From Narcine bancroftii (lineage: Eukaryota), in the NCBI RefSeq assembly GCF_036971445.1, contig NC_091482.1, forward strand, positions 1,922,001-1,986,000: 64,000 bases of DNA, given 5' to 3'. The position numbers and the translations under genes are program-made. Each line of letters starts with the position of its first letter. The stretch's first letter is position 1. The notes beneath the pieces were generated by a model. The model searched no databases and was not told the DNA's origin. It saw nothing but the letters and a program-made list of their open reading frames with translations. Positions 9,105-47,787 of this stretch are shown here, piece by piece.

Positions 9105-9530
9105 ACAGAACCACAGAACATTACAGCACCGAAACAGGTCCCTTTGGCCCTTCCAGTCTGCCAAACTATTTTTCTCCCATCCCACTGACCTGTGCCCAGT
9201 CCCTAACTCTCTCATCCACGTATCTGTCCAAATTCTTCTTCAATGTTAAAATTGAGCCCACATTCACCACTTCAGCTGGCAGCTCGTTCCACGCTCCCAC
9301 CACTCTCTGTGTGAAGAAGTTTCCCCTAAATCTTTCCCCTTTCACTCTTAACCCATGTCCTCTGGTTTGTATCTTACCTACCCTTGTGGAAAAAGCCGAC
9401 CTACATTTACTCTGTCTAACCCCCTCATAATTTTAAATACCTTGATCAAATCTCCCCTCATTCTTCTATGCTCCCGGGAATAAAGTCCGAACCTGTTTAA
9501 CTTGTCCCTGGAACTGGAAGTCTGGGTCAT
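9105..9530 (-). mobile_element. CR1-clade LINE 3' fragment
   Basis: Highly similar to copies at 17025-17605, 21380-22415, 43500-44030 and 49630-50212. Confidence 0.8.
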
Positions 9531-17024: not shown

Positions 17025-17605
17025 GAACCATAGAATGTTACAGCACAGAAACAGGCCCCTTCGGCCCTTCTAGTCTGTGCCTAGTCCCACTGACCTGAAC
17101 CCAGTCCTTACAGCTCCATAGCCCTCTCATCCATGGATCTGTCCAAATTCTTCTTAAATGTTAAAATTGAGCCCGCATTCACCACTTCAGCTGGCAGCTC
17201 GTCCACACTCCCACCACTCTCTGTGTGAAGAAGTTCCCCCTCATGTTTCCCCTTAAACTTTTCCCCTTTTATCCTTAACCCATGTCTTCTGGTTTGTATC
17301 TCATCCACCCACAGTGGGAAAAGCTGACCTACATTTACTATGTTTGTCCCCCTCATAAATTTAAATACCTTGATCAAATCTCCCCTCATTCTTCTACACT
17401 CCAGGGAATAAAGTCCTAACCTGTTTAACCTTTCCCTGTAACTCAGTTCACGCTGCCTTGTTGATATCTTTCCTGTAGTTCAGTGACCAAAACTGCACAT
17501 AATACTCCAATGTCTTATACAACTTTACCACAACATCCCAACTCCTGTACTTGATACTTTGATTTAAGAAGGTCAATGTGGCAAAAGCTCTCTTTACAAC
17601 CCTCT
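17025..17605 (-). mobile_element. CR1-clade LINE 3' fragment
   Basis: ORFs 17108..17389 and 17448..17639 (MRGDLIKVFKFMRG; YRSWDVVVKLYKTLEYYVQFWS). Confidence 0.85.
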
Positions 17606-18744: not shown

Positions 18745-18915
18745 TGTCCTTGACCTTTACTCGGGTGTGACTTCCAAATCCCGGTCACCGCCCCCAACCC
18801 TGCCGCGACAGGGGGGGAAAAGACCCCTGCTGATGCGGTCACAGACTCTGCCCCGGATATCGGGACCCCAATCCAGGAAGGCGCTCTTTGAGAAGTTCGA
18901 ACAGGAAAGCAGCAG
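18745..18915 (+). CDS. SMTNL2: SMTNL2 coding exon 5
   Basis: RQGGKRPLLMRSQTLPRISGPQSRKALFEKFEQE (cf. [34 protein letters not shown]). TTTCTACAG| ... CAG|GTTAGA; phase 2-2. Confidence 0.92.
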
Positions 18916-19652
18916 GTTAGAACCCAGCCTGAAAAACAGTATGGGGGAGGGTAGGAGGGGCGGCGAAGGAGCTCTGTACTATGGGAGGGGCAGTGAGGGA
19001 GCTCTGCCCTGTGGGAGGGGGGGGTGATGAGGCAACTTTGCACCACGAGAGGGGTGGTGAGGGACCTCTGCATCATGGGAAGGATAGTTAAGGAAACCTT
19101 TCACTGTGTAAAGCTGTCTTTGAGAACCCCACATGCATGAAGGGGACGTTATTTGGACAAAATCACTCTCTGGTTCATGTCGATGGAGGTGTTCCTACCA
19201 ACCTCATTTTGAATAAGGGCAAAATATCCCTGACATTAACACAAAAAAATACACCTGGTCCCTGTCATCTGTGGGATCATGCTGTGCTAAGCTGCCATCT
19301 GGGCAACAGTATGGCACAACGGTTATTGCTGTTGCTTCACTGCTCCCCTGACCCAGGTTGGTTGCCATGTGAGAACAGGAGCCAACACCATTATGAAGTG
19401 GCAGGTGGGCTGAATTCCAGTATAAAGATATACAGCATGGTAACAGACCCTTCCGGCCAATGACCCTGTGTCCAATTAACCTACAAACCCTGTACGTCTT
19501 GGAATGTGGCGTGAACCCAGAGGAAACACACAGACACAGAGAGAACGCACAAACTCCGCAGATTGGAACCTGGGTCACTGGACCTGTAGAAGTATTGTGC
19601 TAATGTCCACGCTAACAGTCTGTAAACTGACTCCTGGCAGTGGGTACCGTGA

Positions 19653-20087
<435 letters not shown>

Positions 20088-20464
20088 TGAAGAAGGGCTC
20101 AGTCCTGAAACGTTGGTTATACATCTGTACCTCCGATGGACACAAGATCCTCCAGCGTTTGTGTTTCATAACGTGTGGGAAGAGACAGGCTACAAGATAT
20201 CTCCAGCCAGGGGCTACCTCCGCTCAATGCGCTGGTCTGTGGCCTGCACCAATGGTCAGAGCCCATCATCAACCCCGAGGTTCACCGCCCAGAAATGGGC
20301 GGACCAGCCGACAGCAGTCATCAGAAACTGGGTAATTTCTGGCCAACGTTTCCCCTCCTGATGCCCTGAACTTTTACCAGCCTAAATACACAGGTATTTC
20401 ACTCTCCTGCATCTTGAAGTCTATCTGGATGCCACAGGGTCCTACCTTTCTATTTGGATGTCCC

Positions 20465-20770
20465 AGGGTCAGACATTGAGTGAAGCTCCCTCCACACCGT
20501 CCCAGCACACACTCCTGGGGTCAGACACAGAGTGAAGATCCCTCTGCATTATCCTATCACACACTCCTGGGGTCAGACCCAGAGTGAAGCTCCCTCCACA
20601 CTGTCCTATCACACACTCCAGGGGTCAGACACAGAGTGAAGATCCCTCTGCATTATCCCATCACACACTCCTGGGGTCAGACCCAGAGTGAAGCTCCCTC
20701 CACACTGTCCCATCACACACTCCTAGGTTCAGACACTGAGCGAAGACCCTTTGCACTGAGCCATCACACA
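20465..20770. repeat. ~54-bp minisatellite (ACACTCCTGGGGTCAGACACAGAGTGAAGCTCCCTCCACACTGTCCCATCAC)
   Basis: About 5-6 tandem copies with alternating variants. Confidence 0.9.
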
Positions 20771-20940
20771 CTCAACAGTAGAGACAGCATAGATTACAAA
20801 TGTATCTTTAAATGTTAATGTTGGATACAGAGCAGACAGAACTTTGCCTGTCCAGCCCACGCTGTCCCTGACTTTGCAGCATTTGATGAGTGCATCTAAC
20901 CCTTGCCTGCAGAGCCTCTGTAATCAGAGAGGGATTGTAA

Positions 20941-21114
<174 letters not shown>

Positions 21115-21379
21115 TGAGTACACCCCCCCACCACCCAGGTCAGACATGGCCCACATGCCTAGGTTCACAGCAGAGATCCAGGGGAGGGTATCAGACCCAT
21201 TGGATGGATCAGGGACCAGAACTAGTGTGTGTTGGGGTGAGAGCATACAGCGTTATGGAACAATCTGGTTAAATATCCCTCCAACCGTTGTCTGGGGAGA
21301 AAGCCCCAGAGGATTTTAGATTCATTTAAAGGTACCCTACTTTAAAATGAGCAGTCTAATCACTGGCTGTGTGAATGTT

Positions 21380-22415
21380 ATAACCATAGAATGTTACAGC
21401 ATAGAAACAGGCCCCTTCAGCCCTTCCAGTCTTTGCCAAACCATTATTTTGCCTAGTCCCACTGACCTGCACCCAGTCCATAGTCCTCCATACCCCTCCC
21501 ATCCATGGACCTGTCCAAATTCTTCTTAAATGTTAAAATTGAGCCCACATTCACCTCGTAAGCTGGCAGCTCATTCCACATCCCCACCACTCTCTGTATG
21601 AAAAAGTTCCCCCTCATGTTCCCCTAAACTTTTCCCCTTTCACTCTTAACCCATGTCCTCTGGTTTGTATCTCACCCACCCTCAGTGGAAAAAGCCAACC
21701 TACATTAACTCTATCTATCCCCCTCATAATTTTAAATTCCGCTATCAAATCTCCCCTCATTCTTCTATGCTTCAGGGAATAAAATCCTAACCTGTTTAAC
21801 CTTTCCCTGTAACTCAGTTCCTGAAGTCTGGGCAACATCCTAGTAAATCTTCTCTGCCCTCTTTCTATCTTATTGATATCTTTCCTGTCGTTAGTTGACC
21901 AAAACTGCACACAATTCTCCAAATTTGGCCTCACCAATGTCTTATACAACTTTACCATAACATCCCAACTCCTGTACTCAATACTTTGATTTATGAAGGC
22001 CAATATGCCAAAAGCTCTCTTTACAACCCTGTCCACCTGTGATGCCACTTTCAGGGAATTATGTATCTATATTCCCAGGTCCTTCTGTTCTTCCGCACTC
22101 CTCAGTGCCCGACCATTCACCATGTACGTCCTTTCTTGGTTTGTTCTTCCAGAATGCAACACCTCACACTTGTCTGCATTAAATTCCATCTGCCATTTTT
22201 CAGCTGGTCCGGATCCCTCTGCAAGCTTTGAAAACTTTCCTCACTGACAATGCCTCCAATCTTAGAGTCAACTGCAAACTTGCTGATCCAATTTCCCACA
22301 TTATCATCCAGATCACTGATGTAAGTGACTGACAAACAACAATGGCCTCAGCACCGATCCCTGAGGGACATCATGGGTCACAGGCCTCCAGTCTGAGAAG
22401 TATCATCCACCACTA
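21380..22415 (-). mobile_element. CR1-clade LINE 3' ~1 kb
   Basis: ORFs 22117..22335 (YISDLDDNVGNWISKFAVDSKIGG) and 21614..22048 (VRPNLENCVQFWS...IERGQRRFTRMLP). Confidence 0.9.
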
Positions 22416-22844
22416 CTCTTGTTGTTGGGCTACAATGTGATTAACATCAAATCCAAACCATCAGAGAGCCAGATAAAAGCTTCATCCCACCCTGGCCAAA
22501 CTCCCTTCACCCACCCCCCCCCCCACCCCCACCCCTAGGGAAGAAGGTTCATGAGTGTGCGATCACACACCACCAGATTCAAGGAGAGTTAGCAGACTCC
22601 TGTATTAACCTGGAGAGCCCTGACAGATCTCTCTCTGAAACTCTGCATTCTGTGGCTTAATATGTACAGGTTAACTAGCTGCAAAATGGACTTTCTCACT
22701 ACCTTGGAACATGTGACACTGAACTTGACTCAGGGGGATCATGGACCTGTCTAAAACCCCCAGTGCCAGTAACCACAGTCTGGATGATGTCCATGCATCC
22801 CCTCTCCTCTCCCCAGAAGAAATAACCACTGTAATTACAGGTGA

Positions 22845-23570
22845 ACCTGCTGCAAATACCCTTCATTGAACAGAGGGGCCTTGGGTCCCAAATCCATGCA
22901 TGTCTCAAGGTCACCACGCAGGTTGAGAGGATAGTTAAGAAGGCCTATGGGATGCTGGGCTTCACCAGTTGGGGGGATTGAGTTCAGGAGTTGAGAGGTC
23001 ATGTTGCACCTCTACAAATCTCTAATGAGTCCACACTTAGAGCATTGTGTTCAGTTCTGGTCACCTCATTACAGGAAGGATGTGGAAGCTGTGGAGGGGG
23101 CAGAGGAGATTTACCAGGATGTTGCCTGGATTGGGAAACATCTTATGAAGCAAGGTTACCAGAGCTGGGACTTTTCTCTTTGGAGTGTAGAAGGATGAGA
23201 GGAGACAATAGAGGTTTACAAGATTCTGAGAGGCATAGATAGGGTGGGCAGCCAGCTCCTGTGTCCCCAGGGCAGGATCAGCAAACACCAGAGGACGTGT
23301 GTACAAAGTTAAGGGAGGGAAGTTTAGGGGAGACGTCAGGGGTAAGTTTTTTTTACACAGAGAGTTTGAGTGCCTGGAATGCCTTACAGGGGATGGTGGT
23401 GGAGGCTGGAACATTAGGGGCATTTAAGAGACTCTTAGACTGGCCCATGGATGGATGGGAAATAGAGGTTTACTGGGTAGGGAGGGGTTAGTACTTTTTA
23501 TTAGGAAGGAATATATGGGTCGGCACAACATCGAGGGTCGAAGGGCCTGTACTGTGCTGTAGTGTTCTAT
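22845..23570 (+). mobile_element. CR1-clade LINE 3' fragment
   Basis: MLHLYKSLMSPHLEHCVQFWSPHYRKDVEAVE; 3' end GGCCTGTACTGTGCTGTAGTGTTCTATG. Confidence 0.85.
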
Positions 23571-23615
23571 GAAAGGAGGGCAGGGAGAGGTGCTGAGCAA
23601 GTGAGAACCTTGTGA

Positions 23616-23753
<138 letters not shown>

Positions 23754-23962: not shown

Positions 23963-25294
23963 GAAAAGATTCACTTGTATTGTCAGGATGGCTTCCTACA
24001 AACCCTGCACTAAACCAAAGTTTAGAAGATTGTTCATGAGAATTGGTCTCACCCCAGAGATCATGGGTGGCTCTCTCCTTCTCAGCCCTCAGCTCATGAC
24101 TCTGTTACCCCCAAGTCCCATAATGGAGTAAAACAAGAAATTTTCCGTCTATGCTCTTTCCATCTGGGTGGCATCAACATCGACTTCTCCGGTTCCTGCT
24201 GGCCCATTCCCCATTCTCCCTTTCTTCCCCGTCCCTCTGTCTGCTTCCCTGCAGCTCTCCACTCCCCTTCCCTCTCCATTCACAGAGCCACATTGGTTCT
24301 GTGTCTTTATCTTGACTCTATAAAGGACACTGTCTGACCTGCTGACAGGAGCACTGTGTTATAACAGAGGAGGCGTAACACTAAGACCCACCTGATCTCG
24401 ATGGTAATGTAAAGGATCCTTAGAACATTCCAGCACAGTACAGGCTCTTCAGCCCATAATGATATGCTGAGCTATGTAAACCTGCTCCACAACAATGTAA
24501 CCCTACCTCCCCCACACCCATAACCCTCTCACATCCATGTGTCTGTCTAAGAGTCTCTTAAATGCCCCTATTCTTCCAGCCTCCACCACCACCTCGGCAA
24601 GGCATTTCAGTCCCCCACTTACCTCTGATGTCTCCCCTGCTGTTTGCTATCGTCACCCCAGGTAAAAGGGACGTATTTTAAAAAGGAAGGAGGAGGGGTT
24701 TCTTGATCAGTATTTATTCCTTGAAAAATATCATGAAAATTCTACTGGTTGGTGGGATCTTGCTGTGCGCCAGTAGGCTGCCTGTTTTCTACACTTTCTG
24801 GGTCGTGTACGCTGAGACCAGGGAAGATGTGGCTTCTGCACATTTACGGAGTGATATGGGTAACCACCAACAGGTTTTAACGAGACACAGCTCCTGACTT
24901 GACTGTCGAGTTCCAATAGCAAGGCTGTCAGGGTGGGCAAGTCCAAGAGAGGGGACAGCTCTCACCTTACATCAGAACTAGAGGTGGGTCCTGACCTTTT
25001 CCCTCTCTTCACAGATGATGCCTTGCCAGCTGACAGTTTCCCCCTGAGAAGTTACTCTTGTCCCCAAATTTAAAATTTTTGCCATAACTGCAGGACGAGT
25101 TGTTGGAAAATGCTTCGTGTCCTGGACCTGCGAGGTCTCGTCTCTTTAGATAGACACTGAAAAGTGCAAATGCTGGAACCTAGAGTACATGGCAAATGGC
25201 TGGAGGGTCGCAGGAGGTCAGGGAGCGTCCGTGGGGAGAGGTGGTCAGTCAAGGGTTGGGTGTCTCAATAATGGGTCCCCACCCAAAATGTTTG

Positions 25295-25326
<32 letters not shown>

Positions 25327-25582
25327 TTTTTAAATTTTTTTTATTTTTCACACCATAAATCACATTAGCCATGATATACACTATTTCTTTTCACACATAT
25401 ACAGTGACTTTTTCTCCCCCCCCCCCCTTTCCTCCCAAACCACCCCCCCACCCCCCCCTCTCATCCATTTTAGGTATACAATCTAGGTTGCATTAAGCCA
25501 GTCAGACAATGTTGTCATTCAACCAAATTACACCAGAAATTCTACTGAGTCCATTCTTTTCTTTCCTTCTCCTTCCATCAAC

Positions 25583-25790
25583 TTAGGTAATGTTTGTCCC
25601 CGGTAGGTTTTCGCTATTGTATTTAATGTAAGGCTCCTATACTTGTTCGAATATTTCAATGTTATTTCTTAACCAATATGTTATTTTTTCTAATGGAATA
25701 CATTTATTCATTTAAATTTGGTAGTTTCTTCCTTTTAATTTGGTTATGTATTCCATTAATATTTAAAGACATATAGTTCAGCGTAGCCCT
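25583..25790 (-). pseudogene. Collapsed L1 ORF2 remnant (EN N-terminus fused to ORF2 C-terminus)
   Basis: AGG (in place of ATG)-ATLNYMSLNINGIHNQIKRKKLPNL joined near 25713 to MNKCIPLEKITYWLRNNIEIFEQV*EPYIKY...*. The latter is homologous to the ORF2 tail at ~63290-63385 (EMQSFIPLEKTT...RQPYL). Confidence 0.8.
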
Positions 25791-26389
25791 TTTATATTTT
25801 GTTTATCTTCTCTTTCCGTTTTTCCATCATTACCTTTCCTCCTTTTCCATTTCTGTTTTCTTATTTTCAACTCTTTATAAGACAACATTCCTACAACATC
25901 TAACATTTTCCTTATTCTCCTATTTCTATCTTATTTATCCCCAATCTCCCCTTCACCTCCTGAGTTGTCCTTTATCCCTTGTCGGACAACCACATCTCCC
26001 CTCTCCATTTGGATTTGCGAATCCACTCGCAAGCGTCAACTGATTTTGCAGTGACCGCTATTTCCCCCCACCCCGCCTCCCCCAGAAAAGATTTCACTTT
26101 TCATATGTCACAAAGGTCCCTCTTTTAATTCCCTCCTTATTCTCTCTATTCCATTACCTTCCCTTATTAATTCTTGTCTATACTATCCATATTTTCCTCT
26201 AAGTACAGATACATTCATGTATGCTCATTGTCTCTATTCACTCTTATACCTCTTTACCTGCATACATATCAATCGTGATCATTTTTACTCTCATTACCCG
26301 TCTTCATCCCTCAGTCTATTTTTGTCTTTACCCACATACATATCAGTCGTGATCATTTTAACTCTCATTACCCGTCTTCCTCCCTCAGT

Positions 26390-27613
26390 CTATTTTTGTA
26401 ATTGTTCTGCAAATTTTCGTGCTTCTTCTGGATCCGCGAATAGTCTGTTTTGTTGTCCTGGAATAAATATTTTCAATACCGCTGGATGCTTTAGTATAAA
26501 TTTATACCCTTTCTTCCATAAAATCGCCTTTGCTGTATTGAACTCTTTTCTCTTCTTTAGGAGTTCAAAACTTATATCTGGATAAATGAAGATTTTTTGT
26601 CCTTTATACTCCAGTGGTTTGTTGCCCTCTCTTACTTTTTCCATTGTCTTCTCCAGTACCTTTTCTCTTGTAGTATATCTTACGAATTTTACTACAATAG
26701 ATCTTGGTTTTTGTTGTGGTTGTGGTTTAGAGGCCAATACTCTATGTGCCCTTTCTATTTCCATTTCATGCTGTAGTTCTGGACATCCTAGGGTCTTAGG
26801 GATCCACTCTTTTATAAACTCCCTCATATTCTTGCCTTCTTCATCTTCCTTAAGGCCCACTATCTTTATGTTATTTCTTCTGTTATGGTTTTCCATTGTA
26901 TCTATTTTTTGAGCTAGTAGTTCTTGTGTCTCTTTAGTTTTTTTATTAGATTCCTCCAATTTCTTTTTTAAGTCTTCTACCTCCATTTCTGCTGCTACTG
27001 CCCGCTCTTCCATCTTGTCCATTTTCTTTCCCATTTCTGTTAAGGTCATCTCCATTTTATTTATTTTCTCTTCTGTGTTGTTTATTCTTTTTCTTAAATC
27101 CTTAAATTCCTGTGTTTGCCATTCTCTAAATGATTCCATGTATCCTCTAATAAGAGCAAGTATATCCTTTACCTTGCCTCTCTTTTCTTCTTCTATTTCA
27201 CCATACTCTTCCTCTTCTTCTTCCTCTGGGTTGGCCATCTGTTGTTTCTTTGCTGCCCTTTCCTCCTCTTCTATCTTGTTTCTATTGTCTTCTGTGGTCT
27301 CTTCTTGCTGCAGGTGTTCTGCAGCTGTCGTTGCCGGCTGTGGAGATCGACTCCCCAGCTGGTCCCCCCTCCCGTCGGTGTGTTTTTTTTCATTCGCATC
27401 GCGCATGCGCGAAACTTCGCGCATGCGCGGTTGCGCACTTTTGTTCGGCTCTGCGAGCCATTTTTGTAGTCCATTATTTACCGACCTGAGGGAGCGGGTT
27501 TCTCTCTCCGCAGCGGGCCTCTTCGGACAGGTAAGGCCTTCACCTTTTTCCTCCTTTGTCTTCTCTTCCTCTCTTCTTACCGTTGCTTTCGACTTTTCTT
27601 TTTTTGTCGCCAT
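26390..27613 (-). CDS. L1 ORF1p (coiled coil + RRM + CTD nucleic-acid chaperone), 407 aa, intact
   Basis: Heptad-rich coiled coil, then IDTMENHNRRNNIKIVGLKE, EIERAHR, PRSIVVKF, IFIYPDIS, KRKEFN, HPAVLKI: the hallmark ORF1p motifs in order. Confidence 0.93.
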   Translation of the reverse strand: MATKKEKSKATVRREEEKTKEEKGEGLTCPKRPAAERETRSLRSVNNGLQKWLAEPNKSAQPRMREVSRMRDANEKKHTDGRGDQLGSRSPQPATTAAEHLQQEETTEDNRNKIEEEERAAKKQQMANPEEEEEEEYGEIEEEKRGKVKDILALIRGYMESFREWQTQEFKDLRKRINNTEEKINKMEMTLTEMGKKMDKMEERAVAAEMEVEDLKKKLEESNKKTKETQELLAQKIDTMENHNRRNNIKIVGLKEDEEGKNMREFIKEWIPKTLGCPELQHEMEIERAHRVLASKPQPQQKPRSIVVKFVRYTTREKVLEKTMEKVREGNKPLEYKGQKIFIYPDISFELLKKRKEFNTAKAILWKKGYKFILKHPAVLKIFIPGQQNRLFADPEEARKFAEQLQK

Positions 27614-29079
27614 CTTCTTTCCACCTTTATACTCACTTTTCTGTAACTTTTATTTCTGTGCCTTTGTGTTTTCTCTTGTTTTTCCCGACTTTTCTGGAGA
27701 GGGCTGGAGTTCACCGTCCGGCCACTACTCCATCACGTGACTCCTCTCCCCACCCAAAATGTTGACTGGCCTTTCTACCCATGGACATGACCTGTCCTGA
27801 TGAGTCCCTGCAACAGCTCACTACAGAGACTTCCTGGGCCAGTCAGGCAATGTGTGAGTAGACCCTAATGTAAAGACGATCTGCACATTGGGCATGATCT
27901 GTTGGCACTACAGTATACCCCCGGTCTCAGGGGAGGCTGACCAGACCCTGTAACCCAGACACCTACAAGGGGCGGCTGTTTCTGGGGGATAGTCTTGTGG
28001 AGGTGGTCAGTGTGTGGAGTATCATCGCACACAGAAAATCTGTAAAGTCACACAAAGGCAATAGAGTCCAACACCAGCCTCAGGTCAAGAAAGAGAAGCA
28101 GAGAGTCCCTACAGAGACAATGAGTGTCCATAGATCCCACCACCACCTCCTGCACCCACCCACTCCCCACTCCCCGTCACCATCATGACCGCAAAGCCTC
28201 CTGTCTGGACCAGTGGTGAATTCTGAGCTCTGGGCAGCCGCGGAAACCCTGGTTCCTAATTCCCAACCACCACCCGTTGTCACCATCTGAGACCCTGTAC
28301 ACCATCAGTACCCTCACATATCCCGGTCCCAATGCCCGGTTTCCTTGAGCCGGTGTCCAGCAGCCTGCGGCCTGGCATGAGGATGGGCAACCGGCATTGT
28401 CCACAGTTCTCTAACGAACATCCGTGTTTAATGATTAAAGAGCCAAACTCTTACTGTGGCTAATGACGAACCATGTACATGGAAGTACGAAATTACCAAG
28501 ATATTAATAGGCCTGTGGGCAACAGTTGGAGTAAATCATCTCTACCAGCACAGATCAGTGTCTGTGTACTCCCTTGGTTACTGAATGGCAGCAGATATTT
28601 ACTCTGTAAACAGCCAGGATTAAATTCCATAGACCTGTATTATGTTAGAGGCTTCAGCCACCAAACTAATTTCATGTGGTTAAACCCAGTAACCACAGCA
28701 ACGAGTGTGGCCAGGAATTGACTTCCTTTGGATGACCAGTGAAATGGTGACCCTGTGTCAATCTGACTCTACTGGGTGTCCCTCACCACTGACATTGGCC
28801 TGTCATCAGCCGAAATGTCACATCTACTTGGCAGTCAGTGTTTCAGCGATCCACGGTCTGAGGATTCCAACTGCCAGCTGCTTCTTATCGGACACAGTAA
28901 GAAGCAGAGCCAGGAACCAATGGGATGAGGCAGCCCCCAGCGGGGCACAGTGCCTTGCTTCAGAGGCGGCTTGCATTTCATCGCCTCATCCCATTGGGGG
29001 GAAGGGGGGGTGAAATCAGCTGGGCTGCTTCCAGGTGGGTTTCAACGGTCTCCAGGCAAGAGTGAGGAGGATGTCCAGC

Positions 29080-31140: not shown

Positions 31141-34100
31141 CAGCCCATTCTGCAACACAAATCCGACTGAGAAGGCTCTGTCTTTGATGTCACGTTGGCC
31201 TCCATTTTCCTCCTTCATTGTTCGGCTGGTGATCTGGTGTGGATCCTCTCTCTATCAGCTGACTTTCATCAGTGCAGACCCTTTGGGACCCACAAGGAGG
31301 GTGGTCTGAAACAAGAGATGGAATTGAGAACGAGCAGGAAACTGCAGGTTGGGTAGTTCTGTGGAAAGAGGAAACACATCGTTTCAGGTCAAAGAGCTGG
31401 ACTGTTGTGGGATCTCAGACCTCAAATGTTAACTGTTCCTCCCTCCACAGGCACTGCCTGACCTGCTGAGCATTTCCTACACTTTCTGATTTGACTTTGT
31501 GTTTGCAGGCTCAGGCCCGAAACGTCGGTTAGATCTCTACCTCCTATGGACGCTGAGAGACCTGCTAAGTTCCTCCAGCATTCCTGTGCTTTTACCTCAA
31601 TCACTGAGTCCGCGGACTTTCGGTGTTTCACCTCCTGACCCCGAATGTCTTTGGAATGAGAGGAAATGGGAGAGCCCAGGGAAACCCATGCAGACACGGG
31701 GAAAATGAACAAACTCCCTCAGACTGCGCCAGATACAAACCCGTGTCACTGGCGCAGTGACAGTGTCGCGCTAACCATTCCACTTTATCTCCTACCACAT
31801 TAAAAGTTGTGCACTTGTCGCCCTACATCAGACGTGATCCAGGCTGAACCTCCCAGCAGGGCTGCGGTGTCACCTCCGAGACAAGATGTTTATCTCTGAC
31901 TCATTTGTCCTTTCCAATAAACACAGAGTCTCCTGGGCCACCAATCCCACACTGTGTCCTGGGCCAACACTTATCCCTCAACCCATACCACAAAAAAAAC
32001 AGATCACTTGGTTGGCATTCCACACTTTTACAATCACAGATTACTCACACTTGAAGGTCCAGAATCTTTTGTCCAACCTAAAAATCAGAAATAGAATCAC
32101 AAACAGGTTTGTCATGAACATGTGCCACTAAATTTGTTGTTTGACGGCTCTTGGCCTGAACTTGCTGGAATTTAAGAGAATGAGGGGAGGAATCTCATTG
32201 AAAGATTTTGAATGTTGAAAGGCGTGGACAGAGTCGATGTAGAACGGTTGTTTCCCACAGTGGGAGAGTCGCGGACAAGAGGACACAATTTCAGGATTGA
32301 AGCGTGTCCACTTAGAACAGAGATGCAGAGGAATTTCTTCAGCCAGAGGGTGGTGAATCTATGGAATTTATTGCCATGTTTGTACATTCTCCCTGTGTCT
32401 GCATGGGTTTCCCTGTGGTCTCCCATTTCCTCTTGTTCCAAAGACACACTGAAAGTCTGTAAAAGCACAGGAATGCTGGAGGAACTCAGCAGGTCTCTCA
32501 GCATCCATAGGAGGTAGAGATCTAACCAATGTTTCGGGCCTGAGCCTGCAAACACAAAGAGGTCAGGTCACTGAGTATTTAACACAGGGATTGATAGGTT
32601 CTTGATTAGCCAGGGAGAAGGCTGGGCAGTGGGGCTGAGTGGGGAGAATGGATCAGCTCATGATTGAATGATGAGGCAGACTTAATGGGCTAAATGGCCT
32701 ATGTCTTATGGATTTGTGGCAGCAGTGTTGTGCATTACAGGGGTAAAATTGTTATAAATTACAGTTCCATAAATACAAGATATAAAAATGTAATTAATGC
32801 AAAAAGAGAGAAGGTGAGGCCATGTCTGGGGTTCATTGTCCATTCAGGAATCTGATGGCAGAGGGGAAGAAGCTGTTTTTGTCCCACTGAGTGCTTGTCT
32901 TCAGGCTCCTGCACCCCCTTCCTGATGGTAGTGGAGTGAAGAGGTCATGAGGGTCCTTGAGGATAGAAGCTGCTTTCTTGAGGCACCACCTCTTAGAGAT
33001 GCCCTTAATGGAGTGATGCCCATGATGGTGTTGGGCGAGCTTTCAATCCTCTCTTGCCTTTTCCTGTCTTGGGCATTGGCACCTCCATACCAGTCCAAGA
33101 GCAGTATTCCAGTTTTAAATCACTGCCCTTCACATGTTCCCTTCATCAGTCCCAATGAGGTGAATCTGTGGTTGGTGTGTCATACACAGGGAGCTCAACT
33201 AGTCATGTTGCTGCTATTTTCCTATTAGACTTGGCACCTGGAAAGCTGTTTGTTCTCTGAACAGCCAACACTGTCTGAGAGAGTGTTGCAGCGACTCATT
33301 CAAATTACAGAGTGAATCATGAGAATCACCGGACGCTGTGATTGCGGAAAAACACAAACGCTGGAGGAACTCGGCCAGTCTCGCAGTGTCCATAGGAGGT
33401 AAAGATATAGAACTGACATTTCGGGCCTGAGCCTTTAAATCATAGAACATTATAGCACACAACAGGCCTTTCAGCCCACAATGTTATGCCAACTTACCAA
33501 TAAAACACACTAACCTTCCTCACCCTGTAACTCTCTATTTTCCTTCCATCCATGTGACTACGGGTCTGTTAAATGTCCCCTAATGTTCCAGCCTCCATAC
33601 TACCCCCAGCAAGGCATTCCATGCACCCACCACTCTGTGCAAAAATACTTACCCCTGACATCTCCCCTAAACCCCTCCCTTCACTCTGTACAGATGTCCT
33701 CTGGTGTTTGCTGATCCTGCCCTGGGAAACAGGCGCTGGCCATCCACCATATCTATGCCTCTTAGAATCTTGTCGATCCCTACCATGTCTCCTCTTATCC
33801 TTCTATGCTCCAAAGAGAAAAGTCCCAGTTCTACTAACTTTGCCTGATTTTTTTCAATCCAGGCAACATTCTGGTAAATCTCCTCTGCACCCTCTCTATG
33901 TCTTTCCTGTGACCAGAACTGAACATTAAGTGTAGTCTCACCTGAGATTTACCTTCTTCAAGGTGTGAATAAAATGCAGGCAGGTGCCTGAACTATAGGG
34001 CTGGGAAGAAGGGAAGACAGGGCAGGGAGACGAGCTTGTGGGCAGCAGGCAGTGCAGAGGGAGAGCAGTGAGAAAAACATGCAGAGCTCCCATGGAAGAG

Positions 34101-38991: not shown

Positions 38992-39059
38992 GCGTTTGTT
39001 GATGGGGTGGGTCTTGGCGCCGGCGCGAGGAAGGAAGCGGGAAGATCGGCGGGGGTAGG

Positions 39060-39740
39060 GGGGAAAAACGGGGAATGGTGGGTGGGGGGGGGGAACGGGG
39101 AATGGTGGATGGGTGGGGGGGGGAACGGGGAATGGTGGATGGGTGGGGGGGGGAACGGGGAATGGTGGATGGGTGGGGGGGGGGAACGGGGAATGGTGGA
39201 TGGGGGGGGGGAACGGGGAATGGTGGATGGGTGGGGGGGGGAACGGGGAATGGTGGATGGGTGGGGGGGGGAAACGGGGAATGGTGGATGGGTGGGGGGG
39301 GGAACGGGGAATGGTGGATGGGTGGGGGGGGGGAACGGGGAATGGTGGATGGGGGGGGGGGAACGGGGAATGGTGGATGGGTGGGGGGGGGAACGGGGAA
39401 TGGTGGATGGGTGGGGGGGGAAACGGGGAATGGTGGATGGGTGGGGGGGGGAAAACGGGGAATGGTGGATGGGTGGGGGGGGGAAAACGGGGAATGGTGG
39501 ATGGGTGGGGGGGGAAAACGGGGAATGGTGGATGGGTGGGGGGGGGGAAAACGGGGAATGGTGGATGGGTGGGGGGGGGGCCGGGGAATGGTGGATGGGT
39601 GGGGGGGGGGGCCGGGGAATGGTGGATGGGTGGGGGGGGCTGGGGAATGGTGGATGGGTAGGAGGGGGGACGGGGAATGGTGGATGGGTAGGGGGGGCGG
39701 GGAATGGTGGATGGGTAGGGTGACGGGTGGGTGGATGGGA
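39060..39740. repeat. G-rich ~29-31 bp minisatellite (GGGGAATGGTGGATGGGTGGGGGGGGGAAC)
   Basis: About 22 copies with variable G-run length. Confidence 0.97.
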
Positions 39741-40434
39741 GTTGTGGGGGGAAGTCATCCCCCCCCCCACTCTGGCTCGGTCCCCTTCCCCTGGCAGATC
39801 CCTGAGGGCAGGCCCGCCCCACCTCTAGCCCTCTCCCCCCCAAGGCTCCCCACCCCCATTCTTGGGCTCTCCCCCAACCCCACTACATCTCTGCCTCCCC
39901 CCCCCCCCCCCCCCCAATCCAGCCCATGTACCACCTCCACCCTGGAACTACCCTGAGGATTCCATGACCTGCCACACCTTCCAGGCCACAGTTCTCCTCT
40001 GCAGCTGCTCTCTGACTAGAAACCTCTGAACCCTCACACAATCTGGCCATTCAGCCCAATATATCTGTGCTGGTGTTTATGCACCCCTCTCCCTCCAATC
40101 AATCCTCTCTTAATGTGCAGCAGAACCACTCCAGAACCACTCCAGAACCATCCCTGGCTCCCCACGAAGGATAACAGCCCCACTCCTATCCCTCATCTTC
40201 ATCTCTCCTCTCTGCTGATCCCGAGCTCCTATTCCCTGGAACTCTTCCTCCCCCACTGCACATCCATGGGGCGCAGCTATTGCCACCAGCTCCAATAAAC
40301 AGGTTTTTTGTGGTCCTGTGCAGAAGCTGGGTTGACAAAGTGCTGAGTAAATTCCCACCTCAGGTGGGAAGTCACAGTTACCAGGAGAGGCTGCTAATGG
40401 GGGGGTGGTGAAACTCTTGTTGCAGCAGCTGTGA

Positions 40435-40653
<219 letters not shown>

Positions 40654-40904
40654 TGACCCCAGGCCCCTTGAAGTAGCGCGTGGGCCCTCCACCATAACAT
40701 GTCGCCAACTTGAACAGCACAGAAACAGGCTCCTTGAGATGCTTATATGCTGGTCCTATTTATTCTCATTAGGCTCGTTTTCCCAGTGCACCTTTCATGT
40801 CCATATAACTGTCCAAACACATTTTAAACATTGCAGTTATATGCCCATGAATTATATATCATGTTGGCCACACCAAGACTAGTGTGTGCAAGAAGTAAAA
40901 CACG

Positions 40905-41470
40905 GACGTCTGCAGACACCGTGGTTGGAGTAAAAACATGATGCTGGAGGAACTCAGCAGGTCAAACTATGTCCTTTATGTGGCAAAAGCAAAGATACAG
41001 AACCAACATTTCAGACTTGAGCCCTTTGTCAAAGTACGGGCAAAATGTTGATAGCCTTCTGAACAAAATGGTGGGGGGGGGGGGGGAGGAGGAGCACAGT
41101 CCCACAGGGAGGAGGTAATAGGTGGATAAGGGAGGGAGGACAGCAACAAGCTGGGAGGACTCTGAATGGAGAGGGAAAGGGGTAGAGAGCTGGAGGAAGA
41201 GAGAGAGAAGGATGGGAAGGGAGGGAGAACGGGGAGTGGGCCAGCAGGAACGGGAGAAGTCAATGTTAAATCCCGTCTGCTTGAAGAGTGTGCAGACGGA
41301 AAATCAAGTGTTGCTCCTCCAATTTATGGGTGGTCTTGGTGGAATAGCACACGGCATTCGAGTATGGGAGTGGGGCGCAGAATTGAACTGATGCAGGCAA
41401 AGAGAAGGTGCTCAGTGAAACAATCTCCCAGTCTGCGCCGGTCTCTCTGATGGAGAGAAGGCCATGAAGG
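40905..41470 (-). mobile_element. Penelope-like element 3' fragment with terminal repeat
   Basis: Reverse strand: KLEEQHLIFRLHTLQADGI, a pyrimidine-rich tract, then TTGACAAAGGGCTCAAGTCTGAAATGTTGG...GACCTGCTGAGTTCCTCCAGCA. Confidence 0.7.
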
Positions 41471-42119
41471 TGTAAACAGAGAAGCTGGAGTGACTCAGCA
41501 GATCAGGCAGCATCCATAGAGAGGAATGGCCATTTAAGAGACTGTTAGACAAGCACATGGATGGGTGGAAGGAAAATGGAAGGTTATGGGGTAGTCTTTT
41601 TAATGGTGGGAATATTCTGTCATTCAGCACAACATTGAGGGCCACTGTTCTATGTAATTCTCTGAAGGGGGAGGAGCAGAGGCTAACAGGTAAAAGGTTC
41701 TTCCACGTTCCTGACAAAAGGGCCGGGCCTGAAACGGCGACTGCCTTTTACTTCCTCTGGATGCTGCTTGACCTGCACTTTTGGGTACTGCACATAAACT
41801 TGGACTTGAGCCGTACTTTCAGTTCCCAAGGCCCAAAGCTCTGGGATGCCTTTCCCAAATTCCTTCACCTCTCTCCGTTTTAAAGACTCCCTAAAGCTTA
41901 TCTCTTTTACCTGATGTAGTTTCCCAATGTTGCTCGGGTGTCACTCCTGTGAAACATCTCAGGATGTTACGTGAGGCCAGAACAATGGGACGTAGCCTCA
42001 AGATCCAGGGGAGTAGACTTAGGACGGAGATGAGGAGGAACGGCTTTTCCCAGAGGGTGGGGAATCTGTGGAATTCGCTGCCCATAGAAGCAGTGGAGGC
42101 GACCTCAGTAAATACATTT

Positions 42120-42880
42120 CAAGATTTGTTATTGTCATGTAATAAAAACAGTACAATATTACACGGAATTTGCTTTAGTCTGCCGTAAACCAGATAGATT
42201 CACCATCGGCAGAAATTACAGTCAGAGAAAGAGAAGCAAAAGATCCCTCCTCCCAGAGTCATCGAGTGTCCGTGGATTCGGCTCTAGCGCTCCCGCAGCC
42301 ACATAAAGTTCAGTCCAAACCATCGGCAGACCGAACTCCAGATCTGAACTTCTGACACGATCGGGAAGTTCTCGGCACCCTCTCACTTATCCAGCTCCGA
42401 TACCTGGTAGCCCCTTCCACCAGCCTTGAGCCAGTCTCCAGCGGTCTGCCGCCTGTTGTGAACCCCTCGACTGCAGTCGCCAAGAGCACGCCACCCGTGC
42501 GTTTCTTCAGTCACAGAGTTCCTCATTGGCCCGCCACCATGGCCACCATCCCATGGATCATCTCCTCTGCTTCTCCTCAAACGGAGGGTGGGGGGGTGGT
42601 GGTATCTCTGTTTTCTGGTGCCCTGTGCCACTCCTCTGCTTCCCCGGTATCTGTAACTCCTCGTGGCTGCTGCCAAAGGCATCGCCATCTTGGGTGCAGA
42701 TCCCGTGGTCGCAGTATTTTTTTAATGAAACCGTCGGCTCCAATAACAGGCTGTTTAAAGCCTGTACAGAACCGATGCCAGACAGACTGGGCAAGAGGAC
42801 CATATCTCCATTCCTTGCTCTCCCAGAGTCCAACACCAGTGACAGCACTGCTGTTACAGTCGCTCTGCTAGTGCCGACGT
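42120..42880 (-). mobile_element. Non-autonomous retroposon with a Rex1-like 3' tail, inserted in a CR1 copy
   Basis: Splits a CR1 fragment (41965-42120 resumes at ~42880). Related copies at ~15440-15715 and ~61745-62210. Tail ATTACATGACAATAACAAATCTTGAA. Confidence 0.6.
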
Positions 42881-43086
42881 ATTTAAAACAAGGTTGGATA
42901 GATTTTTACATAGTTGGGGAATTAAGGGATATGGGGAAAAGGCAGGTGGGTGGAGGTGAGCCCATCATCAGATCAGCCGTGATCACATTGAATGGGGGAG
43001 CAGGGCTCGACGGGCCGGATGGCTGCCTCCTGCTCCTATTTCTTATGATGATGAAGGCACTTTATAACTGCAGGCTGTTGTTGTAG

Positions 43087-43252
43087 ACCAGAGGATTGAG
43101 GAAGTCACCTTCTGGGAGAGGGAGCTCAACACCAAGTTGGACGAGCTGTCTGATGAGACAGAGCTGCTGCTGGGCCAGAAGAAACGCTCGGAGAAAGCTC
43201 TGGACAGCTGCTCCGCCCCTCTCTGCATCATCCAGCAGTGCCTCCTGAATCG
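43087..43252 (+). CDS. TEKT1: Tektin-1 coding exon 2
   Basis: (D)QRIEEVTFWERELNTKLDELSDETELLLGQKKRSEKALDSCSAPLCIIQQCLLNR. TTGTAG| ... CG|GTACGG; 166 nt. Confidence 0.95.
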
Positions 43253-43499
43253 GTACGGGCCAGTCGGCAGTTGGTCTACCACTCCCAGGGTTTGTACACC
43301 CCGAACGGGACGGAGAGTGAGCCGGTTCCCGCAATGCTGAGCTGGTCCATAGGTTGCCAGCCACTACAAGCTAGGATGGGTTTAGAGGGATGTGGGCCAA
43401 ATGCAGCCAGCTGGGGTCAAAAGCCCGGTACCTACATTTCATCTCGGAACCTGTTCATAGACACTCAGGCAGAGGGACTTTGTGCAAAATCCTGCGTCA

Positions 43500-44030
43500 A
43501 AGTTGGATGTGATGGTAAAGTTGTACAAGATGTTGGTGAGGCCAAATTTGGAGTTTAATGTGCAGCTCTGGTCACCAAACTACAGGAATGATCATTAAAA
43601 TAGAAAGAGGGCAGGGAAGATTAACTAGGATGTTGCCCAGACTTCAGGAACTGAGTTACAGGGAAGGGTTAAACAGGTTAGGACTTTATTCCCTGGAGCT
43701 TAGAAGAATGAGGGGAGATTTGATCAAGGTATTTAAAATTATGAGGGGGACAGACAGAGTAAATGTAGGATGGCTTTTTCCACTGAGGGGAGGTGAGATA
43801 CAAACAGAGGACATGGGTTAAGAGTGAAAGTGGAAAAATTTAAGGGGAACTTCTTCACACAGAGAGTGGTGGGGGTGTGGAACGAGCTGCCAGCTGAAGT
43901 GGTGAATGCGGGCCCAAATTTAATTTTTGAGGAATTTAGAGAGGTACATGGTTGGGAGGGGTATGGAGGTCAGTGAAACTCGGCAGAAAAATGGTTTGGC
44001 ACAGACTAGACGGACCTGTTTTTGTGATTA
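43500..44030 (+). mobile_element. CR1-clade LINE 3' fragment
   Basis: IERGQGRLTRMLPRLQELSYREGLNRLGLYSLELRRMRGDLIKVFKIMRG. Confidence 0.85.
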
Positions 44031-44496
44031 AATGTTTTCTAAACTGGGAACTTGCTATAAAAGGCTACACTGGGTGGGAGAGGCATTTTTACTGGTCTCT
44101 GAGGTGGCACATAGCAACAGTGGCCCAGCCCTGTGAGCCTTCTTCCAGTGACCACCTCCTGGGGATGGCTGCAGCAAGGCATCGTTATAGGAGACCAGGC
44201 CCTTGACAGGGTAATCACGAGCAAAGTCTGTTTGGACAGACCTGGATGCTGGCTGGCCTTCATCCCACTGCTTCAGTGCTAACTATATGTCCATCTCCCA
44301 TGGATGGTGATAGCTCAGGGCAAGGGTGGGTGGGGCGATATCCTGGGTCAGGGCAGTCGAGATGGTTTCCTGGAGCAGGGGTGAGGGGCTTGGGTGGGTG
44401 GGTGATATCCCAGGTTGGACCGGGTGCAGTCGGGGGGGGGGGGGGGTTCCATCCCTCTTTCCCAGTGAGCTGTGCGCCTTGCTGGCTGTGTTGCAG

Positions 44497-44625
44497 AGAA
44501 AAGCGAGTGGCCATCGATCTGGTCCACGATGAGGTAGAGCAGGAGCTGCTGAAGGAGCAGGAGGTGTTGGAGGGCGTCATCGTGCTGCTGAAACGCACCC
44601 TGGAACAGACTGATGAGCAGATCAG
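44497..44625 (+). CDS. TEKT1: Tektin-1 coding exon 3
   Basis: EKRVAIDLVHDEVEQELLKEQEVLEGVIVLLKRTLEQTDEQIR. TTGCAG| ... AG|GTGGGT. Confidence 0.96.
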
Positions 44626-45204
44626 GTGGGTAAGGGGCACACCTTCCTCCAGGGAGCCGAGCAAACACCTCCCTTCATAACATCCACAGGTCCCACACTC
44701 TCCTTTCACTTCCAGTGCTGAGGGGGGCCCTGTGCCATGGGAGGGGCAGTGAGGGAGCCCCGCACCATGGGTGGGGCAGTAAGATATGGGAGCAGAAGTA
44801 GGCCTTTCGGCCCACCGAGTCCATCCCACCATTTCATAATGAGGTGATCCATTCTCCCATTGAGCCCCACTCCTCTGCCTTTCCCCATAACCTTTGATAC
44901 CCTGATGTTTCCGATATCTGGCTGTCCCAATGGACTGTTTTATTGTCCACCCCTGCTGGTGAACAGTGCATGCTCCAGTGGAAAGCAGTGGATGGGAGGA
45001 GGGGCATTTTGGGCTGACGTTTAACCCTTAAACAACAGCAGCTAAACAGATCAGCTAGTTGTTATCAACTTGCTGATTTTAAGACAGATATAAAGTGGTT
45101 CCATGGTCAGTGAGGTGCTTTGGGGTGTCCTGACATTGTGGCGGGAACAGTGAGACACAAGTGTCTTAATACTGAACCTCACCTTTTGTCTGCTTCCACT
45201 CCAG

Positions 45205-45348
45205 GTTAAATCGTACAGCTAAATTTTATTTGGAGAAGGATTTGCAGGACAAGTCCGCAGCTCTGAAAGTGGACAAATTCACTGCAAATCTCACCAACAA
45301 CTCTCCAAACATTGACTACAGCCCCAACGTCGTCAGGATGGAGGGGCA
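45205..45348 (+). CDS. TEKT1: Tektin-1 coding exon 4
   Basis: LNRTAKFYLEKDLQDKSAALKVDKFTANLTNNSPNIDYSPNVVRMEG. CTCCAG| ... CA|GTAAGT. Confidence 0.95.
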
Positions 45349-45599
45349 GTAAGTTTGAATGTAGGAGCTGTGAACATGCCTGTGTCATACTGGATGAAGG
45401 TTGGAGATGCATGCAGTAGCATTATAGAAATGAAACAGTTTTGTCCTGCGTCCTGGAGCCAGTGTGTTTGGGGAAGTGGGAGTTAGATGGAATGGGATGG
45501 AAAGTATTTCTGTAAAATGCAGCAGCTGGGGGTGGGGGGTGGGATTCGGCAGTGGTTGCACTGCTTGTTGAAGATGACTGAGAAACTGGCTGCATGTAA

Positions 45600-46760
45600 G
45601 ACACACTAAGTGAATCACAAAAGTCTGCAGAAACTGTGATTGTGGTAAACACACAGAAATGCTGGAGGACCTCGGCCACTTCTCGCAGCGTCCACAGGAG
45701 ACCAAGATAAAATGCCAACATTTCGGGCCTGAGTCCTTCAAGGAATAAGAATAAGAAAAAGCAGGAGTTTTCAGAATAGAGAGTGCTGGCTGGGAGGAAT
45801 CCAGACCAACAACAGGTGTCAATTGGATATGATAAGGGCAGAGGTGAGAATTGATTATGTTTGTGTTAAAGGAGACAGGGAAAATGGAGAGAAACTAGGG
45901 AAAGAAGTGAGGGGGGGGGGGGAAGGGTGGGTTTAATGAAACCCAGATAAGCTGATGTGAATGCCATCAGATTGAAGAATGCCTCGTTGGAAGATGAGGA
46001 GTTGTTTCTCCAATTTCCGGGTGGTCTCAGTCTAGCAGTGCATGAGACCATGGACAGACATGTCAGCAAGGGAATGGGATGGAGATTGAAATGGGAGGCC
46101 ACTAGGAGATCCACACTATTGTGGCAGACAGAACCTAGGATGTCCCAGTCTGCATCCAATCTCTCCGATGCAGAGACCACATGGTGAGCAGCAGATGGAG
46201 TGGACGACCACTGCAGATTCACATGTGAAGTTTTTCATTCAATGGGAAGGACTGTTTGGGGCCCCGAATGGTGCTGAAGGAGGAGGTGTGGGCTCAAGTG
46301 GAGGATCTCCTGTTGTTACAGGGGCCGGTCCCAAGGGGATTACTTGTGGGGAGAGAAATGGACAAGGGAGTTGATGACAGAGTGATCCCTGCAGAAGGCA
46401 GAGAGGGGAATATGTATCTAGTAATGGGATCACATAATAGGTGGCAGAAATGGCAAAGGAAAATGTGTTAGACACGGAGGCTGGAGGGGCAGTAGGCGAA
46501 GACAAGGGGAATTCTTTTCCTGTTGTGCGTAGGGATGGAGAGGGCCAGGGCAGATGTGTGGGTAATGACATGCAAGACCTCATCCTGGGTGCAGATGCGA
46601 TGGAGATGGGAGAATTTGAGAGGATGGAATGGAATCTTTACAGGGGACAGGGTGGGGGGAAAGAGGTGTAGTTGGGGTAGCTGTGGGAGTTGGTGGGTTT
46701 GTAGAAGATGCCTGTCGAGTGTTTGTCTCCCGAGATGGAAAGAGAGGATCAAGGAAAGGG
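45600..46760 (-). mobile_element. Penelope-like element (RT C-terminus, GIY-YIG region, terminal repeat), decayed
   Basis: Reverse strand: DIFYKPTNSHSY...CKDSIP, GAPNSPS (QGPKQSF-like), SHFN.H, then GAAGGACTCAGGCCCGAAATGTTGG. Confidence 0.8.
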
Positions 46761-47564
46761 AGAGTTGCTGGAAATGGAAGACAGACTGTTCCATTGCCTG
46801 AGGAGTTGTGAATGGAATTGAATAGTGTGCAGACACCAGTGAATGCTCCACTGCTGACCTTCTGAAGTAGATGAAGATGGTTGGTCCCAGGACACCACCA
46901 TGCGAAACCCCTGGAGCACTGACCAGGACCTCCAACCTTCCCTTGCATAAAGTCTGACCCCACCCAACCACTGGAGGGTCTCTTCCCCCCACCCCCGATG
47001 CCCAATGTCCAGAGCTCTCTGACACTGCACTTGGTCAAACACTGCCATCTTTGGGGTTTGGACCCAGATTGTGATGAGCTCTGGAATTGCGAGGACCCGC
47101 TGAAACCCATACTGGGGACCAGTGAGCAGGTTCTCTTTGATAATTGGCCAGATCACCCTCCACCCTTCTGTTCAACCTCTCCCTGCAAGGTTGGTGGTTG
47201 AGAGTGGACTTTCACTGGATTCCTGCTTGTGGTGAACAGGACCTTTCTGGGCAATGTGTCAGTGTTGAGTAGACATTAGTGTGGTAACTGGCCAGCAACA
47301 GCTGGCGAGAGATGTCATCAGGTCCAGAGGACAGGTCTTCTGTACTATAGCTGGGACGTTGTCCAGCTCCAGCCAGAGCTACATTCAGCACTCTCAACCA
47401 TTCCATCTCCAAGGTAACAGCCTCAAAGACTGAATGGCCTTCCTAGATTCAAGGGGCTATAACAGACTAGAGGGGCTGAATGGCCTCATGTTGTTCTTTT
47501 GTAACAGACTGGAATGGCTGAACAGCCTCAGCAATAATCTGGTGCTGTACTTCATGTTTTCAAG

Positions 47565-47787
47565 CTCTGTCGCCCCAAAGGAGTGGCAAGATTTCACCAA
47601 CACCAACATCGTGAATGCAGGCAAGCAGAAAAACAACTCCATGGCGATGCGCTCGCTGATCGATGGCATCTTGTCGCAAACCACGGACGATATGCTGAAG
47701 CAAGTTCAGCGTGTGAACCAATCATTCCAGTTTCACATCAAGGAAACAAAAGATGCAAAATCCAGGCTGGAACAGCAGCTTAGCAAG
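47565..47787 (+). CDS. TEKT1: Tektin-1 coding exon 5
   Basis: SVAPKEWQDFTNTNIVNAGKQKNNSMAMRSLIDGILSQTTDDMLKQVQRVNQSFQFHIKETKDAKSRLEQQLSK. TTTTCAAG| ... AAG|GTCGGG; 223 nt. Confidence 0.95.

Follow-up and report, generated by a model that had tools for sequence, protein, structure and literature searches.

An ORF1-only L1 element, possibly of the HAL1 type, in the electric ray Narcine bancroftii

A short L1 insertion retaining ORF1

The 64,000-nucleotide stretch analysed here (the window; Narcine bancroftii contig NC_091482.1, positions 1,922,001 to 1,986,000 of the forward strand, assembly GCF_036971445.1) contains a 2454-bp insertion of the L1 retrotransposon family in which open reading frame 1 (ORF1) is open and ORF2 is reduced to its two tips. 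We propose with moderate confidence that this copy belongs to an established, non-autonomous, ORF1-only family of the HAL1 (half-L1) type, with a selected ORF1, that would have arisen from an electric-ray L1. The parts of the element, from its 5' to its 3' side, are as follows.

27747-27763, minus strand: target-site duplication (TSD) on the 5' side, 17 bp, the same as 25276-25292; two occurrences in the window.
27614-27746, minus strand: 5' untranslated region (UTR), 133 bp, assigned from its length and first bases; presumed internal RNA polymerase II (Pol II) promoter, with an E-box GTCACGTG at 27741-27734.
27236-27613, minus strand: CpG-rich start of ORF1 with 25 CpG (observed/expected 1.01 vs 0.30 for the window) and a palindrome at 27400-27429 carrying two GCGCATGCGC motifs, from the sequence.
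26390-27613, minus strand: ORF1, 407 amino acids, from the reading frame and from sequence and fold matches; a disordered N-terminal portion of ~140 residues, a coiled coil at 140-244, an RNA-recognition motif (RRM) and a C-terminal domain (CTD), the final ~7 residues out of frame relative to the nearest relative.
26252-26399, minus strand: 74-bp tandem duplication across the end of ORF1; 5/74 positions differ between the units.
25791-26389, minus strand: inter-ORF spacer, 599 bp, between ORF1 and the ORF2 remnant.
25713-25790, minus strand: putative 5' remnant of ORF2, 26 codons resembling the start of an APE-type endonuclease (EN), from a weak atlas lead and its motif; AGG at the expected start, stop at 25704-25706.
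25711-25713, minus strand: deletion junction, the pieces out of frame; judged by the mean ORF2 length in zebrafish (3773 bp), the lost part would be ~3.6 kb and comprise most of EN, all of the reverse transcriptase (RT) and the cysteine-rich motif.
25583-25711, minus strand: 3' remnant of ORF2, the last 42 codons plus stop, from a match to P0014; in-frame TAG at 25637-25639 opposite a W of the homologue.
25346-25582, minus strand: 3'UTR of ~237 bp with a G tract at ~25416-25458; it matches an older L1 3' end (55549-55687) at 68%.
25293-25345, minus strand: AATAAA signal, templated A-rich stretch and pure A27 tail, from the sequence.
25276-25292, minus strand: TSD on the 3' side, 17 bp, matching 27747-27763; deduced nick 5'-TGTT/GA-3'.

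The insertion occupies 25293-27746 between identical 17-mers (17/17), which occur exactly twice in the window, and the chance of such a pair in two 100-bp flanks is ~6e-7. The polyadenylation signal AATAAA at 25345 is followed by A8, A8-TT and a pure A27 (25295-25321) that is the sole A/T run of at least 12 in the window. The hallmarks of target-primed reverse transcription (TPRT) are complete, and a poly(A) tail and a TSD enclose a unit with ORF1 only, as in HAL1-type elements. A first-pass annotation, made from the sequence alone, had described a minus-strand 2454-bp insertion with identical 17-bp TSDs and a long poly(A), and this description holds. The deduced first-strand nick, 5'-TGTT/GA-3' on the minus strand, appears to be a loose variant of TTTT/A, the L1 endonuclease consensus as quoted in PMC5860796.

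These boundaries bear on whether the unit was created during assembly by the collapse or joining of two L1 copies. Multi-copy elements are prone to misassembly, and one assembly gap does exist elsewhere in the window (2318-2482, the only one). However, the matching 17-bp TSDs bind both ends to one locus, neither a gap nor a long repeat lies at the ORF2 junction, and an artefact would leave the lesions in ORF2 unexplained; we therefore regard this explanation as very improbable.

The 5' end is likely untruncated, as judged from its length and first bases, which fit published L1 5' ends, and from an ORF1 start common to the homologues P0003, P0004 and P0007. Zebrafish L1 elements are reported to have a 5'UTR of 113-267 bp, which includes the 133 bp found here, an inter-ORF spacer of 536 +/- 132 bp on average and a mean ORF2 of 3773 bp (PMC5381506). 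Adding one mean zebrafish ORF2 to the parts of the ray element gives ~6.0 kb, compared with 5.8 +/- 0.4 kb for zebrafish L1. The first bases (27734-27746) are similar to the published mammalian L1 5' consensus. The E-box GTCACGTG, the only one in the window, occupies the place of the mammalian YY1 site, and a motif AAGATGGC lies over the ORF1 start at 27616 on the minus strand.

ORF1 encodes an L1-type protein with Narcine affinity

ORF1 extends from 27613 to 26390 on the minus strand through 407 codons without a stop. Its product, ORF1p, is identified by sequence and by predicted fold as an L1-type ORF1p. It matched human L1ORF1p (2YKP) at E 3e-13, and an AlphaFold model built on a 10-sequence alignment (mean predicted local distance difference test score 71, with residues 1-142 largely unresolved) contains the coiled coil, RRM and CTD. 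A Foldseek search with this model gave E 7.6e-11, and 11/11 matches at E<=0.001 were L1ORF1p chains. The Pfam family Transposase_22 scored 15.9 bits on ORF1p, under its cut-off of 22.4 bits.

Eleven ORF1p homologues were found at E<=1e-20. The four nearest by identity (90, 88, 68 and 58%) all come from Narcine bancroftii, and the fifth-nearest is from a stingray. In a tree of nine proteins, two of them from Narcine (P0011 was omitted, as its anchor motif was not found), the window protein clusters with both Narcine proteins included, and it groups with the Narcine ORF1 proteins P0002-P0004. Because ORF1p is 90% identical to its nearest Narcine counterpart and only ~25% identical to human L1ORF1p, the protein that stood for the mammalian side in this comparison while the HAL1 proteins themselves were left out, the ray element does not appear to be HAL1 by descent. 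This supports the earlier proposal of an ORF1-only L1 derivative in a cartilaginous fish that comes from the local L1 lineage rather than from mammalian HAL1. The window ORF1p branch was 0.052 vs 0.022, which fits faster HAL1 evolution, but the changes are too few and we made no use of this difference.

The first-pass annotation called ORF1p intact, stop-free and pristine. The frame is indeed open over all 407 codons; however, both 74-bp units of the window DNA encode the C-terminal tail of the nearest relative, P0002, in a frame shifted by one base. Since this one-base shift loses the short tail of the nearest relative, ORF1 is open yet clipped by ~7 residues, and thus not pristine. Tail length is variable among relatives, so that the shift and the loss of the short tail were probably tolerated. 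The 74-bp duplication (26252-26399) copies the ORF1 stop region, and one adjacent TG/CA difference between its units can be explained by one ancestral CpG that decayed on a different strand in each. A start at Met127, which would give a 500-bp 5'UTR, was considered and rejected, as P0003, P0004 and P0007 retain the same N-terminal frame.

The 30-bp palindrome at 27400-27429 lies inside the CpG island of ORF1, and its two GCGCATGCGC motifs, which we take to be NRF1-like, are the sole ones in the window. It is missing at the aligned place in P0003. The palindrome and its motifs are possibly promoter elements within the coding region. Two ray proteins whose database names are those of FAM122B and tRNA adenosine deaminase isoforms, P0003 and P0005, are wholly or mostly L1 ORF1p; they are either annotation artefacts or exonised L1 copies.

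Only the two tips of ORF2 remain

The ORF2 remnant totals 208 bp (25790-25583, minus strand) and consists of 26 codons from AGG at 25790, a frame shift near 25712, and 42 further codons that include TAG at 25637-25639. The 3' piece is identical to the library protein P0014 at 21/37 positions, with W facing the TAG and the match stopping upstream of 25711. P0014 in turn has weak similarity to chordate RT/zf-RVT clusters (score 0.80-0.81), weak leads by which it looks like the C-terminus of a chordate LINE (long interspersed nuclear element) ORF2. It also matches an older L1 ORF2 end at 63.1-63.4 kb in the window, which keeps upstream residues absent from the element. For the 5' piece, the single weak endonuclease lead was a PF03372 cluster (score 0.90, 13% of members). 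Pfam and PDB searches returned nothing for either remnant or for P0014, and our reading of the 5' piece as the start of an endonuclease therefore relies mostly on its motif and position, with that one lead as tool support.

Two claims of the first-pass annotation, an ORF2 collapsed to ~210 bp with its tips joined near 25713 and an in-frame TAG where L1 elements usually have W, were borne out. It further claimed that the ORF2 start reads AGG and not ATG; AGG does stand at 25790, and we infer that it replaced the start codon itself.

A HMMER scan of 1.84 billion representatives for homologues of the remnant gave three matches (P0013, P0014 and P0015). P0013 and P0015 were rejected as repetitive chance matches, leaving P0014 alone as plausible. 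A search for a partner ORF2p with the C-terminal remnant against longer proteins gave 0/2 candidates, and one for fused ORF1-ORF2 gene models with ORF1 residues 150-407 against longer proteins gave 0/1177. The search for stray host DNA in contigs of prokaryote genomes yielded one locus among 231 candidate stretches, a 32-residue bacterial match that was rejected as chance. A 22-nt quasi-repeat spans the junction (25703-25744; 17/22, P 0.06) and includes a Pro codon, which we presume to be unexpected in an endonuclease helix. It was considered as the mechanism of the deletion and rejected as not significant.

The EN, RT and cysteine-rich motif of autonomous L1 are absent from the element, and what is left of ORF2 is 208 bp, out of frame and with an internal stop. 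The present copy is incapable of making EN or RT. Taken together, the element has the structure of a HAL1-type element, and its function would be HAL1-like.

Age of the copy and timing of the ORF2 deletion

The inserted copy looks young from its pure A27 and from the absence of copy-specific CpG decay. Among the 40 CpG-decay directions in ORF1 that are visible in the protein, counted from CpGs present in the window, 37 retain a residue that a Narcine relative also has. None of the decays is specific to the window copy and three decay-like positions are common to P0002, compared with three decays in P0004 and two in P0003; the 95% bound on decay specific to the window copy is 8% per direction. 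The perfect 17-bp TSD, previously read as a hallmark of freshness, does not serve as one. We rejected it as proof of young age, since it sets an upper divergence limit of only 16%.

The lineage, on the other hand, seems to have a longer history. If the 5/74 difference between the tandem units (3.4% per unit) had accrued at this locus, ORF1 would have stayed open with a probability of only 0.007-0.125, which suggests that this divergence predates the insertion. The lesions lie in sequence that is free of selection: the 208 bp of ORF2 contain one stop and one lost start, and the 407 codons of ORF1 contain no lesion except for the shift at the last codon. We estimated their timing with a rough model (open ORF1 given, flat age prior, rates assumed). 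The probability of both the stop and the start loss arising after insertion is 0.003-0.011, compared with 0.011, 0.057 and 0.17 at 2, 5 and 10% divergence if the remnant was free in ancestors; for the stop only, the values are 0.07-0.14 after insertion vs 0.19-0.65 with an unconstrained ancestral remnant. At 5% lineage divergence the likelihood favours decay before insertion ~5-20 fold. Because the ORF2 lesions are unlikely to have arisen after a young insertion, we consider it quite likely that the ORF2 deletion is older than the insertion and that the RNA which retrotransposed already carried it, with ORF2p supplied in trans.

Two explanations place the deletion at or after the insertion. 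In the first, either splicing of an autonomous L1 RNA or a jump of RT from the end of ORF2 to its start produced a dead-end copy, which acquired its lesions later. Such an event requires no trans-acting ORF2p, and spliced L1 integrants are reported to have TSDs and poly(A) and to be dead ends (PMC5860796). The junction quasi-repeat could mark a template switch, although it falls short of significance; more seriously, both lesions would have to arise after insertion while ORF1 stayed open, at the low probabilities given above, and we judge this explanation unlikely. In the second, a full-length L1 was inserted and a chromosomal deletion subsequently removed 3.6 kb, in keeping with the reported view that L1 DNA is lost by deletion faster from non-mammalian genomes, where long copies are also selected against (PMC5381506). 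The same improbable post-insertion lesions stand against it, and the deletion must also have excised almost exactly ORF2 alone within the short life of a young copy, so that we hold it to be distinctly less probable still.

A third explanation accepts that the deletion came first and denies that a family exists. Here a single source locus, itself decaying, would have acquired the deletion and lesions, and its RNA would have been mobilised in trans on one or a few occasions, with no selection on ORF1 since the loss of ORF2. This accounts equally well for ORF2 lesions older than a young insertion, and it suits signs of ORF1 selection that are weak and cannot be dated. However, a decaying source with two ORF2 lesions would usually break ORF1 (open with probability 0.05-0.3 at 2% divergence), and a window taken at random would be likelier to contain a member of a large family. 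We regard it as an outside chance, on a par with a one-off deletion at insertion.

Several observations weigh against an established family with a selected ORF1. The protein collection searched held no entry for the exact window ORF1p, and the 64-kb window contains neither a second copy of the element nor a match to its junction, only two older, distant L1 3' ends. The CpG-rich stretch is possibly unmethylated, which would weaken the argument for youth; the decay in the tandem units (2/12) compared with that in ORF1 (0/37) is borderline (P 0.056). At 2% lineage divergence the likelihood ratio for pre-insertion decay is only 1-4, and in 15% of cases chance alone would put a single stop in the remnant and not in ORF1. 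The 33 ORF1 differences were divided into 15 assigned to the window lineage, 6 assigned to P0002 and 12 dropped as ambiguous, and the window-lineage changes are slightly more conservative than neutral by protein-only proxies (P 0.06-0.08), which is not significant. Such signs of selection could also date from an autonomous ancestor. The older history (the duplication, the clipped tail and the ~10% ORF1 divergence) could have arisen in another species or in a subfamily that was autonomous; a similar 9% (156/171) separates two Narcine copies, and all of the lineage history could precede the loss of ORF2.

Proposed mechanism and relation to known elements

In the favoured ORF1-only family, an ancestral ~6-kb L1 would have lost ~3.6 kb within ORF2 while its promoter, ORF1, spacer, 3' end and the two tips of ORF2 were kept. 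Pol II would then transcribe a source copy from its 5' end, the RNA would be polyadenylated, and ORF1p from this source would coat its own RNA in cis. ORF2p of an intact L1 would bind the poly(A) in trans and nick the target at TGTT/GA, and reverse transcription of the whole 2.45-kb RNA, primed by the target, would leave the 17-bp TSD. Thereafter the ORF2 tips would decay freely while ORF1 remained open. This division between ORF1p in cis and ORF2p in trans is most likely the one at work here, by analogy with other systems.

An ORF1-only reporter RNA is reported to be mobilised by ORF2p in trans and to require functional ORF1p (PMC11260458). TRE5-A.2 of Dictyostelium likewise combines a large ORF2 deletion with an intact ORF1 and is non-autonomous; it is mobilised in trans by TRE5-A.1 ORF2p, with cis preference of ORF1p and a need for functional ORF1p (PMC3159450). 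This amoebal element differs in that it targets tRNA genes and needs a 3' C-module, whereas the ray element has a loose L1 endonuclease site and a poly(A) end. HeT-A (Jockey clade) and Ag-Sponge (CR1 clade) are also bipartite non-autonomous LINEs with ORF1 (PMC5786205), but they belong to other LINE clades and to insects. According to these accounts, ORF1-only LINE derivatives arose repeatedly, outside mammals too.

Mammalian HAL1 elements (human HAL1/HAL1B, rat RNHAL1, guinea pig and bat) are similarly described as L1-derived, with ORF1 only, poly(A), TSDs and a need for L1 EN/RT. Several independent origins of HAL1 in mammals are reported (PMC5322556, PMC5753468, PMC2241872, PMC3627910), including that of RNHAL1 by ORF2 deletion, with ~7500 copies (PMC2241872). 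In contrast, the ray element lies in a cartilaginous fish and has a short, fish-type 5'UTR, a long spacer and both ORF2 tips still readable. For non-mammalian vertebrates, sharks and rays included, the literature searched gave no report of a HAL1-type element; it consisted of listings and abstract openings, with Repbase, Dfam and supplements, whose family lists may already contain such an element, outside its scope. SpIREs (spliced integrated L1 elements) resemble the ray element as internally shortened L1 copies with a TSD and poly(A), but they are reported as dead ends that lose the 5'UTR or ORF1 at GT/AG sites (PMC5860796), whereas the ray element loses ORF2 instead.

Autonomous fish-type L1, as described in zebrafish, fits the ray element in 5'UTR, spacer and 3'UTR lengths; unlike it, the ray element is without EN, RT and the cysteine-rich motif, and its 3'UTR has a G tract. 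This tract (25416-25458, minus strand) contains four runs of at least 3 G. Two other, older L1 3' ends of the window (~55550-55590 and ~63640-63655, plus strand) are likewise G-rich. A 3'UTR poly-G tract has been termed mammal-specific among the species studied (PMC5381506). Because G-rich L1 3' ends occur in a ray window, the tract may be older than mammals.

Genomic surroundings

The insertion lies antisense, upstream of Tektin exons and ~1.5 kb past an exon that we take to end the coding sequence of a smoothelin-like gene. A Pfam search with another exon of the putative smoothelin-like gene gave no match.

18800-23750, plus strand: host gene, presumably smoothelin-like, from its translation.
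40400-51012, plus strand: host gene Tektin, by Pfam.
57178-57483, minus strand: exon of a presumably inositol 5-phosphatase-like gene, by Pfam Exo_endo_phos2.

Other repeats are scattered through the window. The older related L1 3' end at 55549-55687 (plus strand) is identical to the 3'UTR of the element at 94/139 positions, and ~63000-63700 (plus strand) holds an old 5'-truncated fragment of another L1 family, comprising an ORF2 C-terminal region with stops and a frameshift together with a 3'UTR. Dispersed repeats at 9163-9521, 17078-17449, 21450-22027, 43505-43931 and 49696-50212 are 60-92% alike and are, we assume, probably 3' ends of CR1-type LINEs. A G-rich 30-bp minisatellite of 21 copies occupies 39053-39720, and 31495-32559 carries inverted arms of 101 nt each, 96% complementary and 863 nt apart.

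Implications

If many copies share the junction, HAL1-type parasitism would not be confined to mammals among vertebrates, and it would have had an independent origin in a lineage that split at the base of the jawed vertebrates; if the junction is unique, the element is an ordinary rearranged L1 copy. The retained ORF2 tips would make selection on cis-acting ORF1p measurable inside one element, as ORF1 against remnant, and this comparison bears on why ORF1-only RNAs suit a cis-preferring ORF2p. In repeat annotations of shark and ray genomes, such elements may be entered as L1, either full-length or truncated. More tentatively than the existence of a family, we suggest that electric rays could harbour a young, still-amplifying family of ORF1-only L1 parasites in which the ORF2 tips form a neutral clock beside a selected ORF1. 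The copies of such a family may be more numerous than those of its 6-kb host L1, since selection against long insertions, as proposed for non-mammals, would spare short ones. If this electric-ray family is real, the rule of ORF1p in cis and ORF2p in trans would hold across jawed vertebrates.

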